Positions 4,060-12,288 of a stretch of 12,288 nucleotides of DNA are shown piece by piece. Within the stretch, counting starts at the first letter, position 1. Every line of letters starts with the position of its first letter. The stretch covers positions 75,299 to 87,586 of the forward strand of contig CAZVUM010000011.1 of NCBI GenBank assembly GCA_964629575.1. The letters are read 5' to 3'. The position numbers and the translations under genes were made by a program. Source of the DNA: an uncultured Acidimicrobiales bacterium. GTDB taxonomy: Bacteria; Actinomycetota; Acidimicrobiia; Acidimicrobiales; Poriferisodalaceae. A model generated the notes under the pieces. That model was given only the letters and a program-made list of their open reading frames with translations, was not told the DNA's origin and did no database searches.

Positions 4060-4437
4060 TCAGGCGGTCGAACCGAGCGGCGCGCAGTCCGAACCACAGT
4101 CCGCGGCCGACCCCTCGGGTGCAGGTGCGGGGCGGTGGAGGACACCCGACGTCGGGGTGACGACGAGCTCGTCGCCGTCCACGGCGCACTCACCGTCGAC
4201 GATCATCGAGTACCCGCCCTCCTCATGGGGCGGCCACAACACCGACATGGTCGGCCGATCAGCGACATTGCGGGCCGCAGTCCGGCTCGCGCCACACCGA
4301 AGGGCGCCGTCCTGCAGGGTGAAGGTCACGTGCGCAACGTGCGGGGTCGAATCGTCGCGCACCGTGAGGACATAGGCCGAGGCGCCGAATCGTTCGAGCT
4401 CCGCGGCCAGCTGGCTGACATCGACAGGAATGCTCAT
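4060..4437 (-). CDS. Small PNPOx-like (pyridoxamine 5'-phosphate oxidase family) FMN/F420-binding split-barrel protein
   Basis: The 125-aa ORF has an ATG start. The sequence AYVLTVRDDSTPHVAHVTFTL...TMSVLWPP...GYSMIVDGEC has the flavour of PNPOx/general-stress split-barrel proteins. It is translationally coupled to the downstream CoA-transferase. The family assignment is from memory of the motifs, not from a search. Confidence 0.55.
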   Translation of the reverse strand: MSIPVDVSQLAAELERFGASAYVLTVRDDSTPHVAHVTFTLQDGALRCGASRTAARNVADRPTMSVLWPPHEEGGYSMIVDGECAVDGDELVVTPTSGVLHRPAPAPEGSAADCGSDCAPLGSTA

Positions 4438-4488: not shown

Positions 4489-7400
4489 TCAGTCCATGCG
4501 CCGCAACAGGCTCTCCAGCGCGCCCTGCAGGGTCGAGTCGAGCTGGCCCAGTGCGCTGGCGACCGGATCGGGTCCGTCGGGCTCCCGACGAGCTGCGAAC
4601 GCTGCAACGATCTGATCCCATCTCGCCCGTTCGTCCTCGGTGAGCACACCGCGGAGTTGGCGTAGCTTCAGCGTGTTCTCCTCCGCACCCGCGGCGAGGG
4701 TCTGCGCCTCGCCGATGTAGTGGTCGTCGAGAAGGTCCTCCACCTCCTCGGAGGACATGACGGGGACGACCTTCTCGGCAAGGCGGTTCATGTTGCGGTA
4801 CGAGCCCTGCAGCCGGAACGGCGGCTCGGTGCGATAGTCGTCGGCCGTCGCGGCAGACGCGATGTACTGCAGGTTGACGGCGAGCACCGCTTCCTGAATT
4901 CGCAGCAGATGGCCGACCACACGGGTGATCTGATCGATCTCGACGGCGGAGTACGGGTGCGACAACTCCTCCGGAGACACGGGCTCGCCTCGCGCCAGAT
5001 CGACGAAACGCAGCAGGTCGCCGGGATCCCGACCGGCGAGCGGCGCGAGCACCGCGTTGGAGGTGAGCGCGTTCTGGAGATAGCTGAGAGCGAACTGCTC
5101 CTCCCGACCGCTGAGCACGTCGCCGAGATTCCACGTGTCGGCCCTGTTGGCCAACATGTCGGGGATCTGGAAGCTCTCGCCCGACTCGGTGTAGGGGTTT
5201 GCGGCCATCACCACGGCGAATCGCTTACCGCGTAGGTCGTAGGTGCGCGTGCGGCCGTTCCAGACGCCCTCGACTCTCCGCTGCCCGTCGGACAGGGAGA
5301 TGAACTTCTGCAGAAGCTCGGGGTTCGTGTGCTGGATGTCGTCGAGATAGAGCAGAACGTTGTTGCCCATCTCGAAGGCGAAGTTGATGCGCTCCACTTC
5401 CTGCCGCGCCGTTGCATCGGGGGCCTCGGCCGGATCGAGGGAGGTGACCTCAGTGCCGAGTGCCGGGCCGTTGACCTTCACGAACACGAGACCCAACCGA
5501 TCGGCCACGTACTCCATCAGCGTCGTCTTGCCGTACCCGGGCGGCGAGATCAGAAGCAGCACGCCGGACTGATCGACCCGACTCCCGCCGACGGTCCCGA
5601 GTTGCTTGGCCAGGTTGTCGCCGATCAACGGGAGGTAGACCTCGTCGATGAGCCGGTTGCGCACGAATCCGCTCATTACGTTGGGAACGAACTCCTCGAG
5701 CCGCAACCGCTCACGCTCTCGGGTGAGCAGCCCATGCCGGGCAGCCTGATAGGCCGCAAAGCCCGGCTGCACCTCGGCGGCGTGGGTGTGGACCCGATCG
5801 AGCAAGTCGTCGAGGCGGGTCACCAGCCGACCCTCGACGATGCGGTCGTGGTCCGACAGCAGGCCTTCGACCGTGATCGCGAGGTCGATCTCGACAGGGC
5901 GACGTTCGACGTCTGCGACGATCGAGGCGGCGATCTCGGGTGCCTCGTCTGGCAGGAAGCCCTCCGCCGAGAGCCAGCCGCGGACCCACCCATCCACCAC
6001 CCGGTACCACCCGGCCTCGTCGTCGCCCAGGCTGCGCTGGGCGTCGAGGAACACGGATTCGTTACCGCTCGCGCTCAGCCAGTTGCGGAACGCGTGCAGG
6101 TGTTCGACCGAGGTGGTGCTGGTGGCGAAGGTGGGGACCTCCTCGGCGACCTCCATCGCGAGGTACCCGGCGACGCGGTCCGGATCGACGGCGAGGTCCC
6201 ACCCAGCGCAGAACTCGGCGACCGATGCGACCAACGTCGTCGAGAGTGCGTCGAATCCGCCGTCCTCCCGGAGCGACTCCCGCAGGGCAGCGGCCGCTCG
6301 GGCGGTCGCGTGGATACGACGTCGCTCCGCCTCGCTGAGCCCGTGCGCCCAAAACAGCTGGGCGGCCGATCGGACCGCTGCGAGGACCCGCAACAGGCCC
6401 GCATCGGAGAAGGTCCGAACCGCGGCCGCCAAGATCAGCGCCGCATCGGCATCGTGCACTCCGCGTTCGTACCCCTCCGCAAAACGGGTCTCGATCGCAG
6501 CGCGCACGACATCCACCAGGCGGTCGGTGGCCGCCGCCGAGAGATCGGCGAGCGAACCATCGGATTCGGCCCCGAGCAGAATGGTGCCGGCCAGATACTC
6601 GGCGCGGGAGAGATCCGGGGACTCCGAGCTGACCCGCATGTTCCAGTACGGCCGCGTCTTCTCGAACTCCGGATCCACGACCGGCTCGCGGTAGTCGGTG
6701 CCCACCAGGAGGAGATCTACCCCGTCACCAGAGGGCACGAGCGACGCCTCCAGTGCCTGGCTGTTGACGCTGAAGCGGTGGGCCCCGAATCGGATGACAT
6801 CGCCACCGTCCTCGAAGATGTCGAGCTGATCCCGCAACCCTCGCTGTGCCTGCTCACCTGCGGCGGACAAACGAAGCAGGATCTCATCGGCCCGCACGAC
6901 CTCGCCGAGCTCCCGCAGTTCGGCGACGATCGAGCGCAGCCGTTCGATCATGGGGTCGCCGGCGAAGAACGCAGCCACCTCGGTGGGCTCGGAGAACGAC
7001 GCCGCCCGCCGGGTCACCGTGGCGAGCACCCGGGTCGCAGCGTCATCGAGGCGTTCGGCAGTGCGAAGCCGACCGTCCACGAGCGCCTGCTTACGAGCCG
7101 CGAAAGCGTCGTAGACGTCGTCGCGCTTGTCGTGGATCTGCGAGGCAAACTCAGCGACGGCGCCGAATCGGCCCTCGAGGTTCTCCAGAGCCACCAGCAT
7201 GCGACCGAGCTGCTCGTCGGCGGCTTCGGGAGACGCGGATTGGGCGAGTGCGCCGGCGACGCTCTGGGTCACCAGGCTGAACTCTGCGCCGAACTCCGCC
7301 CGACCCTCATGCTCGGCGAGCTCCGTGCGGCGTCGCTCCAGCAGGGCCCGCACCCGATTGGCGACGCCAACCACCTCACCGATTCGGCCGAGGATGCTGG

Positions 7401-9384
7401 TTCGGACCACCGGATCGGCCACGTCGAGGCCCGAAACGACATCCGACACGACGTCGAGCTCGCGTCCGAGCTCGTCGAGCTCGGCGCCTACGTCTTGGGC
7501 CTGCACCGTCGTCTCGAGGCCAACCACCTCGCGCTCGTGGTCGGTCAGGCGCTGGTGGAACGGGTCGAACGATGAGTCCGCTGCGAGGTGTTCGACCGTT
7601 CGTTCGGCGAGGTCGGCGAACGTCGAGTCGAGATCGGCGTCCAACTCCTCGAGACGGGCCTCGTCGACATACCGCAGGTCGCGCAGCGTGACGAGGGTTC
7701 CGCGGTGCTCACGTAGCTGAGCCAGAAGTGACGTGTGGTCGTCCGACCGTTCGATCGTTCCACGCGACCTGGCATCCAGATCGCGAAGACGAGACGCCGC
7801 CTCGTCGACGCGAGTCGCGGCTGTTTCGCGGAGGGCTTTCACCTGAGCGAACTCGTCGAGGACGAGACCGGCAATCTCTCGAATATCGCGGACGACATCG
7901 GCGATGCGTCCCACCTCGGCATCGTCGAGCCAATGATGCGCGTCCATGGTGCGCGATGCCGCGGCGATCAGGTCCTCGAACGCCCGCTCCCCCTCGGCGC
8001 GGGACCGGGCGAGACGACCCACGGTCAGGGCATCGCTGATCCCGCGAACCAACTCGGCATTGCCGATCCGGGCCAGTGGGCCGGTGTCGACAGCGTGGGC
8101 GGCCTGGTGCTCGTCGGACACATACGGGGTTCGCCACACCTGCATCGGGTGAACGCGAGTCGGTTCGGCGTCCGTGTCTCGGAACACCACGAGGTGGCCA
8201 TCGTCGAACCGGCATACGCCGTGGCACTGGATGGGTGTGTGGACGTCCTTGCGCACCTGGTTGTACGACAGCAGGACGTAGCTGCCGACTTCGCGGTTGC
8301 TGAACGTGTAGAGCACGTCTTCGCCGTTGGGCGACCTGACCACCGACTCGAACTCCATGTCGGTGGTGTCCACGTCGAACGCCCGGTGCTCACCGTCTTG
8401 GAGGTGAAAGCCGCCGGGAAAGATGACCCCGTGGTCCTCGGGCAGCGTCTGACACGCGAGCGCGATGGCGTCGAGGCGGGTCACCGTGCTCGACCGTCGG
8501 TTGAACACGTAGGTGCGTTCGTGTGTCTCCCTGTAGGGCGTGATCCGCAAGAGGATGAGCGATCCGCGTACCGCATAGTCGACCATGCAGTCGGCCAGGC
8601 TCTGCTCGGCATCGTCGACCGGCTCGACGAGGATCACCGCTCCATCGGGCGTGTTGTCCTCCGCCCGGAGCTCCAGCGAGCCGCCCGTCGGATCGATGAA
8701 GACCTCGTCGATCACCGATATCGCGGGGTGCCGTCCACCGCGATGGTCGGCCCGGCCAGTGGGCGTCCATTCGAAATCGAACCGCGGCGGGAACCGGTAG
8801 TCGCGGTCCCCGCGCGAGTCGATGTACTCACAGTCGCCCTCGGGCGTGAGTCGCCACCGGAACACCCGCACGTCCTCGAGCGTCGCTCCGATCTGAAATG
8901 CAGCGAGCAGGCGCTCGCCGGTGTTGACCAGGTCGAGCAGCCGAGCCGCCTTGTAGTAACGGTAGAGATCGATGAACTCCTCTTCGAACCGCGGGTCGGC
9001 GAGGAAGTAGCCGGGGTCCTCCACCCCGACCTGGTGAAGATCGACGTCACCTCCGCCGGTGAGGGCGAGACGGTGAAGGGCGAACACGTCGGCGGGGCGG
9101 ATCGTCTCGCGCAACCCGATGAAGACGTTGTACCCGAAGAGAAGGAGCTCGCCGACCTGCACCACATCGCGGGGGACGCAGCTGTTCTCGGTGCGGATTC
9201 GGGCGCCGCCGACCAGTTCGATCGTGGTCGCGCCGAACTCGGCGACTCGGCGATTGTTGAGCTGGTGGGCCCGCGACGCGAGTTCGGTTGCGCTGGCGCT
9301 CAGCCGCTGCTGGAGCAGTTCGTAGGCTCCAGCGGCGATCTGCTCTCCGTTCCCGTCGTTGGCCTGCGTCGACGCGTCGCTCAT
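4489..9384 (-). CDS. Giant (1631 aa) multidomain protein with a single C-terminal AAA_5-type (MoxR/dynein/midasin/McrB-like) P-loop ATPase module. N-terminal about 480-aa domain and about 800 aa of helical/acidic linker are of unknown function. Proteins of this kind are often auto-annotated vaguely as 'DNA repair ATPase' or 'AAA family ATPase'.
   Basis: A continuous 4.9-kb ORF with high GC3. Walker A LLLISPPGYGKTTL is encoded at about 5521-5560. Walker B VLLYLDDIQH is at 5329-5355. A sensor-1-like AVVMAANPY...IPDMLANR is typical of AAA_5. The ATG at 9384..9382 overlaps the flotillin TGA (ATGA at 9381-9384). Stop TGA at 4491..4489. Confidence 0.9.
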   Translation of the reverse strand: MSDASTQANDGNGEQIAAGAYELLQQRLSASATELASRAHQLNNRRVAEFGATTIELVGGARIRTENSCVPRDVVQVGELLLFGYNVFIGLRETIRPADVFALHRLALTGGGDVDLHQVGVEDPGYFLADPRFEEEFIDLYRYYKAARLLDLVNTGERLLAAFQIGATLEDVRVFRWRLTPEGDCEYIDSRGDRDYRFPPRFDFEWTPTGRADHRGGRHPAISVIDEVFIDPTGGSLELRAEDNTPDGAVILVEPVDDAEQSLADCMVDYAVRGSLILLRITPYRETHERTYVFNRRSSTVTRLDAIALACQTLPEDHGVIFPGGFHLQDGEHRAFDVDTTDMEFESVVRSPNGEDVLYTFSNREVGSYVLLSYNQVRKDVHTPIQCHGVCRFDDGHLVVFRDTDAEPTRVHPMQVWRTPYVSDEHQAAHAVDTGPLARIGNAELVRGISDALTVGRLARSRAEGERAFEDLIAAASRTMDAHHWLDDAEVGRIADVVRDIREIAGLVLDEFAQVKALRETAATRVDEAASRLRDLDARSRGTIERSDDHTSLLAQLREHRGTLVTLRDLRYVDEARLEELDADLDSTFADLAERTVEHLAADSSFDPFHQRLTDHEREVVGLETTVQAQDVGAELDELGRELDVVSDVVSGLDVADPVVRTSILGRIGEVVGVANRVRALLERRRTELAEHEGRAEFGAEFSLVTQSVAGALAQSASPEAADEQLGRMLVALENLEGRFGAVAEFASQIHDKRDDVYDAFAARKQALVDGRLRTAERLDDAATRVLATVTRRAASFSEPTEVAAFFAGDPMIERLRSIVAELRELGEVVRADEILLRLSAAGEQAQRGLRDQLDIFEDGGDVIRFGAHRFSVNSQALEASLVPSGDGVDLLLVGTDYREPVVDPEFEKTRPYWNMRVSSESPDLSRAEYLAGTILLGAESDGSLADLSAAATDRLVDVVRAAIETRFAEGYERGVHDADAALILAAAVRTFSDAGLLRVLAAVRSAAQLFWAHGLSEAERRRIHATARAAAALRESLREDGGFDALSTTLVASVAEFCAGWDLAVDPDRVAGYLAMEVAEEVPTFATSTTSVEHLHAFRNWLSASGNESVFLDAQRSLGDDEAGWYRVVDGWVRGWLSAEGFLPDEAPEIAASIVADVERRPVEIDLAITVEGLLSDHDRIVEGRLVTRLDDLLDRVHTHAAEVQPGFAAYQAARHGLLTRERERLRLEEFVPNVMSGFVRNRLIDEVYLPLIGDNLAKQLGTVGGSRVDQSGVLLLISPPGYGKTTLMEYVADRLGLVFVKVNGPALGTEVTSLDPAEAPDATARQEVERINFAFEMGNNVLLYLDDIQHTNPELLQKFISLSDGQRRVEGVWNGRTRTYDLRGKRFAVVMAANPYTESGESFQIPDMLANRADTWNLGDVLSGREEQFALSYLQNALTSNAVLAPLAGRDPGDLLRFVDLARGEPVSPEELSHPYSAVEIDQITRVVGHLLRIQEAVLAVNLQYIASAATADDYRTEPPFRLQGSYRNMNRLAEKVVPVMSSEEVEDLLDDHYIGEAQTLAAGAEENTLKLRQLRGVLTEDERARWDQIVAAFAARREPDGPDPVASALGQLDSTLQGALESLLRRMD
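5100..5600 (-). other. AAA_5-type ATPase core of the giant protein (P-loop, Walker B, sensor-1 region)
   Basis: GYGKTT is encoded by 5521-5538 (minus). LLYLDDIQH is at 5329-5355. (V)VMAANP is around 5200-5230. Domain boundaries are approximate. Confidence 0.7.
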
Positions 9385-11426
9385 CGCAGGAGCTGGCCGA
9401 CCGGAACGTCACCCAACCCCGCACCCTGCGCCGCTTCGAGGATCTGGCCGAGCTGGCCGGCTCTCTCGCCGGAGCTAGCGGAGATCATGCGGCCGAGGAA
9501 CGCAGCGAGCGTCAGATCGCCGATCCCCGAAGCACCGAGGCCCGAAACAGCGTCGCCGATGTCGGCGACGAGATTCCGCTCGCCCTCCAGGTACGGACCC
9601 ATGACCGTGGACGTGGTCTCGGATCGCTCGACGAACTGGTCGACGGCCTTGCCCCCCGACACTGCGCTGACGATGCGGTCGACGAAGATGTCGCTGCCAC
9701 CGACGATGTCGATGTCGGCGTTGGAGAGACCCGACGAGATCGCCTCGGCCTGGGCTTGGGCGATACCGACGTTGGCGTCGACTTCAGCGAGGCGTACCTG
9801 GACATCTGCATCGAGACGCCTGCTGAATTCCTCGAACTCTTGACCGACGCCCTCGAGCTCTCGCATGGCATCGGCCTTCTCGGTGAGGCCAGACGCCTCG
9901 CCCTTGAGCTTCGCCTCGGTCGCCTCGGCTTCGGCCGTGCCCTTCTCGCGCACCACATTGGCTTCGGCGAGGCCCTGCTTTTCGGTGGCGAGGGCGTCGG
10001 CCTCCTTGACGTGCACCTCGGCCAGACCGAGCTTCTCGATGGCCAGCGCGTCGGCCTCCTTCACGTGCACCTCGGCCAGACCCTCTGCCGCAAACTCGGC
10101 CTTCGCGCCCTCGGCGAGCTTGATCTGGGCCTCCGAACGCAGGCCTGCCGACTCCAACTCGGCGTTGGCGATGGTCACCTCTTCCTTGGCCCGGTGGTTG
10201 GCGGCAGCTTCCGAGGCCTCCGCGGCCTTGATGTCCTTGACGAAGGACGCCTGAGCATCACCTTCGGCCTCGAGAACGACAGCGTCCTTCATCCGGCTGG
10301 CATCTTCGACCACCCGCAGCGTGGCGATCGCTTCCTCCTCGCGAGCGACGTCCTTCTCGACCGCGACCCGATCGCGCTGGAGCTCGGCGATCGCCGCCTT
10401 CTCCTCTTCGAGGGATCGCTCGGCAGCGGTGGTCTCGACCTCTCGGTTGACCACCTCGATCTGGCGAGCCTTCTCGACCTTCTCGGTCTCGACCGCCACG
10501 ACGCGCTCGCGGTTCTTCGCTGCCACATCGATCTCGCGCAGACGGTTCTCGTCGTCGATACCGATGGCGAGCTCCGCTGTGATCCTGGCCTGCTCTGCAC
10601 GCTGATGTTCTTCGGCCTCGACCTGCAGGGTCGCCGACGCCTCCCTGGCGCGCACCACCTCGATCTCGCGCTTTTGCCGCGCCTCGGCCTCGGCCTGCTG
10701 CCGTTCGAGTTCGAGCACCGCCTCTCGGGTCTCGACGTTCTTGCGAGTGAGCGCCTTGGTCTCCTCGTTCTGGGCCTCGTTGGTCGCCACGTGCTCGATC
10801 GCCGTGAGCTCGGTGATCTTCCTGATGCCCTCGGCATCGAGGATGTTGTTCTCGTCCAGTAGTTCAAGCGGTGTCTGCTCGAGATAGTCGATCGCAGCGT
10901 CCTCGAGCACGTACCCGTTGAGGTCGGTACCGATGATCTGCACGATCGCATCGCGGAAGCGGTTTCGCTCGGTGTACAGGTCGACGAAGTCGAACTGCTT
11001 GCCCGCAGTCTTGAGAGCCTCGCTGAACTTGGCGTTGAAGAGCTCCTCGAGCGTCACCTGGTCGCTCGCCCGCTCGGTCCCGATGGCCTGGGCCACCTTG
11101 ATGACGTCCTCGGCGGTCTTGTTGACCCGAACGAAGAAGCGCACGGCGATGTCGGCCCTGATGTTGTCCTGGCAGATCAACCCGTCCTGGCCTCGGCGGT
11201 CGATCTCGATCGTCTTGACCGAGATGTCCATGATCTCCGCCTTGTGAATCACGGGGATCACGACGCGGCCGGTGAAGGTCACCACCACGTCCTTCATGGT
11301 GCTGACGACGAGCGCTTTGCCCTGGGGCACCTTCCGGAAGAGGCGACTGACGAGGAGCGCGATGCTCAACAGCACCACCAGGACGATGCCCACCACCGTC
11401 GCGATCGCAATCAGAACGCTGTTCAT
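9381..11426 (-). CDS. Flotillin-family protein (SPFH/band-7 domain plus long EA-rich coiled coil; YqiK/FloT-like)
   Basis: N-terminal TM/hairpin MNSVLIAIATVVGIVLVVLLSIALLV. SPFH-type region (KALVVSTMKDVVVTF..., VKTIEIDRRGQDGLICQDNIRADIAVRFFVRV...). This is followed by about 350 aa of E/A/K/R-rich heptad-like repeats (EAEARQKREIEVVRAREA...), typical of flotillins. ATG at 11426..11424 overlaps the upstream NfeD TGA. Its own TGA overlaps the giant gene's ATG. Confidence 0.9.
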   Translation of the reverse strand: MNSVLIAIATVVGIVLVVLLSIALLVSRLFRKVPQGKALVVSTMKDVVVTFTGRVVIPVIHKAEIMDISVKTIEIDRRGQDGLICQDNIRADIAVRFFVRVNKTAEDVIKVAQAIGTERASDQVTLEELFNAKFSEALKTAGKQFDFVDLYTERNRFRDAIVQIIGTDLNGYVLEDAAIDYLEQTPLELLDENNILDAEGIRKITELTAIEHVATNEAQNEETKALTRKNVETREAVLELERQQAEAEARQKREIEVVRAREASATLQVEAEEHQRAEQARITAELAIGIDDENRLREIDVAAKNRERVVAVETEKVEKARQIEVVNREVETTAAERSLEEEKAAIAELQRDRVAVEKDVAREEEAIATLRVVEDASRMKDAVVLEAEGDAQASFVKDIKAAEASEAAANHRAKEEVTIANAELESAGLRSEAQIKLAEGAKAEFAAEGLAEVHVKEADALAIEKLGLAEVHVKEADALATEKQGLAEANVVREKGTAEAEATEAKLKGEASGLTEKADAMRELEGVGQEFEEFSRRLDADVQVRLAEVDANVGIAQAQAEAISSGLSNADIDIVGGSDIFVDRIVSAVSGGKAVDQFVERSETTSTVMGPYLEGERNLVADIGDAVSGLGASGIGDLTLAAFLGRMISASSGERAGQLGQILEAAQGAGLGDVPVGQLLR
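9994..10083. repeat. Tandem in-frame direct repeat (54-nt period, about 36-nt near-identical core, 2 copies) inside the flotillin coiled-coil region
   Basis: gcgtcggcctccttgacgtgcacctcggccagacc at 9994-10028 and gcgtcggcctccttcacgtgcacctcggccagacc at 10048-10082, with 1 mismatch. This encodes the duplicated peptide LAEVHVKEADALA(I/T)EK. Confidence 0.8.
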
Positions 11427-12067
11427 GTCTGCCCTTCTTCCCCACTCGGGGAGTTGTTGCTGTCAGCATCCGGCGGGGTGTCGTCGAACGACAGGTCGGC
11501 CGGAACGACCGTGTAGACCTCGTTGGAGTCGTCGTGGTCGACGACGATCACCTCGTCGCCGCGCCGGATGTCGACGCCGACCCGCGCCCGGCCTTCCACC
11601 AGCAGCACCGAGCCCTGGGCGTCGGTGAGCTCCACCTGGCCGTAGCGGTCATCGAGCCGCTCCGTGCGCACCCGCCCGATCGAGCCGATGAAAGCCGAGC
11701 GGGAATCGGCCTCGCTGGTCTCCATCATCCGCCCGAGAGGGCGAGCGAGCAGGACAGCGAACGTCGCGCCGACCGCGACGGACAACAGCAGGACGAGAAT
11801 CACCACCACGAGGGCGATCCCGTCACCGAAGACCGAGACGAAGATCACGCTCGTCAGCCATCCGCCGGCGCTCAGAAAGGTCAGCACCGCCGCCGGCGGA
11901 ACACCCCCCAGCTGCACGGCATCGAGCATGCCTTCGACCGGCCCGCCGAGATCGATCTCATCGCCGATCCCCAGCACCGCCATCAGCAGCCACCACCCGA
12001 GGCTGATCGCGAGCAGCACCGTGAACACGATCGTGGGGAAGGAAAAGATGATGTCGAAGAAGCTCAC
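11423..12067 (-). CDS. NfeD-like (YqiJ/YuaF-type) membrane protein with C-terminal OB-fold, the canonical flotillin operon partner
   Basis: Two hydrophobic blocks (FFDIIFSFPTIVFTVLLAISLGWWLLMAVLGIG; ALVVVILVLLLSVAVGATFAVLLA). The C-terminal motif GSIGRVRTERLDDRYGQVELTDAQGSVLLVEGRARVGVDIRRGDEVIVVD matches the NfeD OB-fold beta-barrel pattern. The gene lies directly upstream of the flotillin with an ATGA overlap. The start codon (GTG at 12067) is uncertain. Confidence 0.75.
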   Translation of the reverse strand: MSFFDIIFSFPTIVFTVLLAISLGWWLLMAVLGIGDEIDLGGPVEGMLDAVQLGGVPPAAVLTFLSAGGWLTSVIFVSVFGDGIALVVVILVLLLSVAVGATFAVLLARPLGRMMETSEADSRSAFIGSIGRVRTERLDDRYGQVELTDAQGSVLLVEGRARVGVDIRRGDEVIVVDHDDSNEVYTVVPADLSFDDTPPDADSNNSPSGEEGQT

Positions 12068-12288
12068 GCCTCACCGCCCAGCCCGCTCGCGAACACGGCC
12101 GGCTCAGTCCGACCGGACCGCATTCTGTCATCACCCGGCCACGTCACCGGCCACACACTCATCACCCCATCTCGGCCCACCCACGGGCCTCCACTCGAAG
12201 ATGACAACGAGATGACGATCGAGAAGGTTCCCTGTTGTCGCTGCGGGCTCGCTTCGGCCCCAGGCGGCCTCCAAAGGGGCCTCTCGCT
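12068..12288 (-). promoter_or_regulatory. Upstream non-coding leader/promoter region of the nfeD–flotillin–giant-ATPase operon, containing short direct repeats (TCATCACCC x2 flanking GTCACCGGCC)
   Basis: No convincing ORF on the operon strand. tcatcaccc occurs at 12128-12136 and 12159-12167, with cacccggcc/caccggcc variants between. A GC hairpin ggcccc(N14)ggggcc lies near 12254-12279. No confident -35/-10 assignment is possible by eye. Confidence 0.3.

Follow-up and report, generated by a model that had tools for sequence, protein, structure and literature searches.

A divergent, compact copy of the NfeD-like, flotillin and DUF3686 ATPase operon in an uncultured Acidimicrobiales bacterium

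The gene pairs yqiJ-yqiK of Escherichia coli and yuaF-floT of Bacillus subtilis are NfeD2-SPFH2 pairs (Hinderhofer et al., 2009; PMC2636767), in which a protein with three transmembrane helices and an OB fold is encoded directly upstream of a flotillin. A larger arrangement has been described, purely computationally, by Ravi et al. (2024; mSystems, PMC11237479; preprint 2020): an operon that combines CesT/Tir and PspA with three genes, among them one for a three-transmembrane YqiJ/YuaF protein, for which a chaperone-like assembly and ATP-dependent membrane remodelling or dynamics were proposed, and whose PspA-less "abbreviated operons" are more widely distributed. In Dokdonia donghaensis DSW1 (PspA ANH61663.1), the supplement of that paper gives the order YqiJ-YuaF, Band-7/flotillin, and a protein with β-propeller, coiled coil and AAA-ATPase. 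Here we studied a 12,288-nt stretch of DNA (the window; positions 75,299 to 87,586 of contig CAZVUM010000011.1, assembly GCA_964629575.1) from an uncultured Acidimicrobiales bacterium, in which an open reading frame (ORF) listing gives three consecutive minus-strand ORFs of 214, 681 and 1631 amino acids (aa). These encode an NfeD2 (YqiJ-YuaF)-type membrane protein, as judged from its predicted fold (gene 1; 11423..12067, GTG start), a flotillin (SPFH2, YqiK-like), as judged from a Band_7 domain and a BLASTP alignment to YqiK (gene 2; 9381..11426, ATG start), and a giant DUF3686 protein recognised by Pfam (gene 3; 4489..9384, ATG start). The window shares with the operon of Ravi et al. its three products, their domain architectures and the gene order, and it corresponds to the abbreviated form, the full five-gene form being present in 11 proteobacterial loci and on a Hymenobacter plasmid; it differs in that it is about 53% identical to its nearest relatives and stems from an uncultured high-GC organism, lacks PspA, CesT and PLD, and has overlaps at both gene junctions. 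We conclude that the window holds a new, divergent and compact copy of a computationally known operon and reveals no new principle. The original prediction, made from the window alone, had stated that no characterised flotillin operon includes such a partner; this stands in so far as we found no experimental study, but the trio itself had already been reported (PMC11237479).

To place the cassette among its relatives, we scanned one genome per GTDB species, which confirmed at least 570 relatives of the giant ATPase, and kept 80 loci from Actinomycetota, Myxococcota, Gammaproteobacteria and Betaproteobacteria. All 78 loci for which upstream sequence is available have the flotillin gene there, on the strand of the ATPase gene and directly adjacent to it except in L076, and about 74 of 75 evaluable loci also have the NfeD-like gene. 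Unbiased clustering of flanking ORFs across the 80 loci revealed no other core gene, no further family occurring in more than 12 loci. A search of 72,556 plasmid records gave full-length flotillin matches in 13, and the ATPase is encoded in these 13 and in no others, with the two genes adjacent; 24 other plasmid records match the flotillin only in its SPFH domain. Pairwise distances between the ATPases correlate with those between the flotillins (r = 0.95) and with those between the NfeD-like proteins (r = 0.86), values that none of 500 permutations reached and that partly reflect shared species phylogeny. These observations show that the trio is a conserved operon unit in many bacterial phyla, as the original prediction had proposed; adjacency to flotillin is decisively not sporadic, whether counted over the surveyed gene neighbourhoods (78/78) or in both directions among the plasmids (13/13).

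Reading the minus strand of the window confirmed the two predicted 4-nt stop/start overlaps, one between the stop of gene 1 and the start of gene 2 (11423..11426; gacATGAac) and one between the stop of gene 2 and the start of gene 3 (9381..9384; gcgATGAgc). The boundaries of all three genes are identical in the independent JGI and ENA gene calls for this contig. Each of the three proteins aligns with its family at the N terminus too, which supports the chosen starts, and the ORFs are genes rather than chance ORFs, since conserved homologues occur in the same order in other genomes. The 4-base overlap is the commonest overlap type in bacterial operons, so the overlaps are by themselves unremarkable, and what goes beyond chance here is the conserved gene order. 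Quantification of the junctions revealed a 4-nt flotillin/ATPase overlap in 14 of 77 loci, mostly GTGA and all but one actinobacterial (the exception is L021, from an uncultured delta proteobacterium), with gaps from a few nt to about 600 nt elsewhere; NfeD/flotillin overlaps occur in 13 of 72 loci and are mostly of 1 nt. The ATGA overlaps are a lineage-specific detail seen in about 20% of loci and not a conserved feature, and the "stoichiometric co-expression" deduced from them over-reads translational coupling. The gene set is probably co-translated.

Individual loci showed variations on this arrangement. In L076 (Lampropedia hyalina), a 3.4-kb insertion (4609-8001) splits the flotillin gene from the ATPase gene and encodes an NYN-domain protein and an MNT (Polbeta nucleotidyltransferase)/HepT toxin-antitoxin pair. 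An extra conserved ORF of 79-95 aa lies between flotillin and ATPase in Pseudomonas and Lysobacter (L042:7643-7882, L059:7558-7818 and L063:7638-7925) and bears a weak resemblance to TerB/EF-hand domains (the TerB match, E 5.8e-5, narrowly misses the cut-off); a 188-aa zinc-ribbon ORF takes the same place in Aquabacterium (L043:7351-7917). A metagenome-assembled genome labelled "uncultured Clostridia bacterium" (L003, CAZQBW010000056.1) carries the cassette in full, with an ATPase that shares 51% identity with that of the window; unlike this label, all other close relatives of the window ATPase are from Actinomycetota, and the label may reflect mis-binning or horizontal transfer. An origin from phage was ruled out, as there was no match in 50,697 phage records. 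Carriage on plasmids is rare: it was seen in 13 of the 72,556 plasmid records, and most of these are megaplasmids, chromids or chromosomes labelled wrongly. A plasmid-borne mobile module is not favoured.

The predicted structure of the gene 1 product indicates that it is NfeD-like at the level of fold and architecture (YqiJ/YuaF, NfeD2 type) while falling below detection by curated sequence models. In its AlphaFold2 (AF2) model (predicted local distance difference test score, pLDDT, 75.9 for the whole protein and about 90 within the barrel), transmembrane helices at residues 2-32, 58-80 and 86-116, matched by three hydrophobic segments in the hydropathy profile, precede a C-terminal five-stranded OB-like β-barrel (residues 130-189). 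The three best Foldseek matches in the PDB are all NfeD proteins: YbbJ in QmcA-YbbJ at the top (8z5g, E 6.4e-5), the soluble domain of YuaF (2k14, E 1.8e-4, TMt 0.66) and Pyrococcus horikoshii 1510-C (PH1510-C; 3wwv, E 4.7e-4, TMt 0.76). Its gene lies directly upstream of the flotillin gene, as those of NfeD2-type proteins do, with the 4-nt overlap in the window. Whole-protein scans with Pfam, NCBIfam and PADLOC returned no match for this protein, and the Pfam models NfeD (PF01957), YqiJ_N (PF21001) and YqiJ_OB (PF07290) did not match it even at E <= 10; nor did any of the 54 members of its family (the window protein and 53 relatives) match any Pfam family, the NfeD and YqiJ models included, whereas E. 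coli YqiJ itself matches both YqiJ_N and YqiJ_OB. Alignment of the family profile to E. coli YqiJ with hhalign (probability 72.8%, E 3.2e-5) is suggestive only. Some relatives in UniRef are labelled "YqiJ family" or "DUF1449", the Hymenobacter orthologue being annotated DUF1449. The window protein used alone as a query found just four homologous proteins; a family profile search was more productive, with matches almost all from Streptomyces.

The flotillin begins with a membrane anchor (about residues 1-34; the one N-terminal hydrophobic segment by hydropathy), followed by the SPFH/Band_7 domain (32-174), a long glutamate/alanine-rich coiled coil and a C-terminal part of about 170 aa. When the N-terminal 243 aa were scanned alone, Pfam matched Band_7 at residues 32-174 with E 7.7e-10, whereas the full-length protein had no match in whole-protein scans with Pfam, NCBIfam and PADLOC, and six of nine orthologues likewise lose the Band_7 match in full-length hmmscan. 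Apparently the long, compositionally biased coiled coil suppresses the match in the full-length scan, which may explain why many orthologues are annotated "hypothetical protein". BLASTP aligned residues 1-458 with E. coli YqiK (E 9e-35, 29% identity over 467 aa), and a search against PDB sequences gave no match. The Flot domain (PF15975), present in YqiK with E 6.4e-41, was not detected by Pfam in the window flotillin or in nine orthologues. The last ~170 aa, for which Pfam has no match, are specific to the ATPase-linked subfamily. By these comparisons the partner flotillin belongs to a distinct, longer YqiK-type subfamily of its own, which in the plasmid collection pairs one-to-one with the ATPase.

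The giant protein consists of a β-propeller, a helical and coiled-coil region and a C-terminal AAA+ module, in this order, and hydropathy analysis found no hydrophobic segment and hence no transmembrane helix. Its DUF3686 match (PF12458; residues 34-484, 7933..9285, minus strand; Pfam E 1.5e-178) covers, in an AF2 model of residues 1-1200 (pLDDT 83.3, 51 aligned homologues), an N-terminal helix (20-50) and an all-β, propeller-like domain (56-418) with about 26 β-strands, for which Foldseek returned the nucleoporin 7tdz_i, PfCyRPA, the clathrin terminal domain, YncE, the prolyl oligopeptidase propeller and EED. The model continues with very long helices that form a coiled-coil or spectrin-like region (residues 424-856; 6817..8115, minus strand), within which Pfam placed DUF7902 (residues 605-688; 7321-7572, minus strand), and then with a small β unit and a further helical domain. 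Nearly every complete protein 1550-2036 aa long carries DUF3686 at its N-terminal end or close to it; in P0385 (1798 aa) the match is internal only. The AAA+ P-loop core (residues 1276-1401; 5182..5559, minus strand; AAA_5 E 2.6e-7, AAA E 7.9e-7) has intact Walker A (GYGKT at 1283) and Walker B (LLYLDD at 1344) motifs, N1396 as probable sensor 1 and R1414 (ANRAD) as probable arginine finger, and the catalytic motif residues are invariant in 15 full-length homologues. PDB sequences gave weak matches to Rix7, VAT and p97 at residues 1243-1315, at the level of Walker A only. More than 5599 homologous clusters were found for the giant protein, mostly named "DNA repair ATPase" by the Prokaryotic Genome Annotation Pipeline (PGAP), and the nearest homologues are about 53% identical. 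In two myxobacterial (Polyangiaceae) loci, the ATPase has a C-terminal extension of about 440-460 aa (L061:12966-14297 and L038:8135-9517) with PilZ at its end (L061: E 1.4e-4, 22.6 bits against a cut-off of 22.5; L038: E 3e-3), which hints at cyclic di-GMP control in that lineage. The identities originally assigned to the genes held up for all three, for the first through its predicted fold and without a Pfam match, for the second through Band_7 in the N-terminal part and the alignment to YqiK (E 9e-35), and for the third through the AAA_5/AAA module found by Pfam.

Some relatives of the cassette are also linked to PspA. DUF2170 (YjfI, CesT-like) and PspA are encoded directly upstream of the NfeD-like gene in 11 of the 80 loci, all from Proteobacteria, and the Hymenobacter plasmid has the order Tir-chaperone, PspA, DUF1449, flotillin, ATPase. 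On the well-studied megaplasmid pQBR103 (Pseudomonas fluorescens SBW25, NC_009444.1, 85-98 kb; L085), where the trio starts at 89658, PspA lies about 4 kb upstream on the same strand, and the same-strand genes ahead of the trio encode PspA, a rhomboid protease, DUF2491, DUF350, DUF1190 and glutathionylspermidine synthase; here a PspA/polyamine gene set is joined to the trio, so that the two PspA operon classes of Ravi et al. are merged in a single array.

At the window locus itself, which is part of the 16,135-bp JGI metagenome contig Ga0114932_10003257 (L001; GC content about 67%) and whose organism is also present in ENA and Logan assemblies, the neighbours on the contig are genes for an enoyl-CoA hydratase, a σ70-family protein, tRNA-Ala, a CoA-transferase, an HMG-CoA-lyase-like protein and a luciferase-like monooxygenase. 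The tRNA-Ala(GGC) gene (L001:3637-3710, minus strand there) lies just past window position 12288. It is encoded on the strand opposite to the NfeD-like gene, in a 780-bp gap ahead of that gene, and stands between the cassette and the divergent enoyl-CoA hydratase gene. A promoter scan found no sigma70-like promoter upstream of the cassette, nor did a terminator scan find any terminator-like site downstream of the giant gene on the strand that encodes the cassette. A 125-aa ORF (window 4060-4437, minus strand), called as a gene by both JGI and ENA, follows the giant gene at 52 nt; it was ruled out as a fourth cassette gene, since a homologue was present in 0 of the 80 loci and Pfam had no match.

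We consider it probable, at roughly 60%, that the trio is a module for membrane stress or membrane remodelling, with flotillin/PspA assemblies as the target of its ATPase; for this we infer the physical interaction, the topology, the ATPase activity and the substrate. Lysine/arginine-rich stretches follow the anchor of the flotillin and the third transmembrane helix of the NfeD-like protein, and because of these stretches (positive-inside rule) and the lack of a transmembrane helix in the giant protein, we place the soluble domains of all three proteins in the cytoplasm. On that side of the membrane, the flotillin would build an oligomeric scaffold or cage with the help of the NfeD-like protein, and the giant protein would dock on it through its propeller or coiled coil; ATP hydrolysis would then drive assembly, disassembly or remodelling of the flotillin polymer and, where PspA is present, also of that ESCRT-III-type polymer, during envelope stress or membrane repair, analogous to the action of Vps4 on ESCRT-III. 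The build of propeller and long helices, with fold-search matches that include clathrin heavy chain, nucleoporins and IFT-A, is loosely reminiscent of membrane-coat proteins. The more specific idea that the giant protein is a dedicated ATP-driven machine for the assembly, disassembly or remodelling of flotillin cages, with the C-terminal ~170 aa of the flotillin as docking site, is put forward tentatively, and we lean somewhat against it; if true, flotillins would for the first time have a known energy-consuming partner, and the giant protein would be the SPFH-scaffold counterpart of Vps4.

Several observations weigh against a remodelling module. The AAA_5 and AAA models score equally for the ATPase module and favour no single AAA+ clade, its Walker B ends in DD and not DE, and the sequence after Walker A has no aromatic pore-loop motif, so that classical substrate threading is doubtful. 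The 16-kb and 40-kb contigs of the window organism contain no CesT/Tir-PspA, and none of the sampled loci from outside the Proteobacteria has PspA within its 8-kb flanks; a mechanism centred on PspA therefore cannot be general. The share of species phylogeny in the distance correlations counts on the same side, as does the outcome of literature searches with DUF3686, PF12458 and "DNA repair ATPase" plus flotillin, which returned no experimental study of the ATPase.

A close variant of the remodelling proposal is quality control of membrane proteins, in which membrane proteins that are damaged or unfolded would be confined by the flotillin/NfeD cage, with the giant AAA+ protein as their unfoldase or extractor, a protease-less analogue of FtsH inside HflK/C. 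A partnership of SPFH and AAA+ proteins is established for HflK/C-FtsH, FloA-NfeD of Staphylococcus aureus reportedly stabilises unfolded proteins, the pre-Walker-A helix and Walker A region of the giant protein resemble those of the classical AAA unfoldases Rix7, VAT and p97, and β-propellers are common as substrate- or adaptor-binding domains. However, the giant protein has no protease domain, no protease gene is conserved nearby, its sequence lacks a canonical aromatic pore loop, and the link to PspA/CesT points to polymer dynamics and not to proteolysis; we regard quality control as unlikely. An anti-phage or conflict system, in which the giant NTPase would sense infection and flotillin/NfeD would be the membrane effector of an abortive infection, seems more improbable still. 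Defence systems typically include large NTPases whose sensors are repeat domains; the distribution is patchy with variable flanking genes, the module is on some megaplasmids including pQBR103, and one locus has a toxin-antitoxin pair and an NYN-domain gene inside the operon. In contrast, PADLOC-DB 2.0 gave for the ATPase only a Walker-A-level match to IetA (E ~2e-3) and nothing for genes 1 and 2, Pfam found no nuclease, protease, TIR, Sir2 or other effector domain, the neighbours on the window contig are metabolic, none of the 50,697 phage records matched, and the linkage to the PspA stress system recurs. That the giant protein is a DNA repair ATPase, as Pfam describes DUF3686 ("ATPase involved in DNA repair") and as PGAP names the product ("DNA repair ATPase"), and merely sits beside flotillin genes of no shared function, is strongly disfavoured and hardly credible, since Pfam, NCBIfam and fold searches found no DNA-binding, nuclease or helicase domain, the conserved neighbourhood has no repair gene, flotillin adjoins in 78/78 loci and in both directions in 13/13 plasmids, and searches of the accessible literature returned no paper naming DUF3686 or PF12458.

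The label "DNA repair ATPase", attached to thousands of DUF3686 proteins, is without visible support in domains, gene context or searchable literature and is probably a propagated misnomer. As for the remodelling module, the role of bacterial flotillins is still disputed, and here a flotillin subfamily is tied to a giant ATPase at every locus examined and, in some phyla, also to PspA, the bacterial ESCRT-III protein, a linkage which suggests that flotillin scaffolds can be actively remodelled with ATP. Culturable carriers (Streptomyces, Myxococcus, Pseudomonas, Proteus mirabilis and the plasmid pQBR103) offer a concrete experimental handle.

Set beside known systems, the window differs from E. 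coli yqiJK, which has no downstream ATPase gene and is followed by the sibD/ibsD locus, in that its flotillin is about 130 aa longer than YqiK and has no Pfam Flot-domain match, and in that its NfeD-like protein, compared with YqiJ, falls below Pfam detection for YqiJ_N, YqiJ_OB and NfeD. With HflK/C-FtsH it shares the functional pairing of an SPFH scaffold with an AAA+ ATPase at the inner membrane. FtsH, however, is a membrane-anchored protease and the SPFH domains of HflK/C are periplasmic, whereas the window ATPase is soluble, has no protease domain and, at about 1600 aa, combines a propeller with a coiled coil, and the window SPFH domain is predicted to be cytoplasmic. Vps4/CdvC with ESCRT-III, like PspF with PspA, provides our working analogy. 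The window ATPase differs from Vps4 in having no MIT domain and no detectable specific homology to it, and PspA is absent at the window locus, the constant partner being flotillin; the likeness lies in a dedicated AAA+ ATPase encoded beside a membrane-remodelling polymer, and in Proteobacteria and Bacteroidota the extended operon does include PspA, a protein of the ESCRT-III family.

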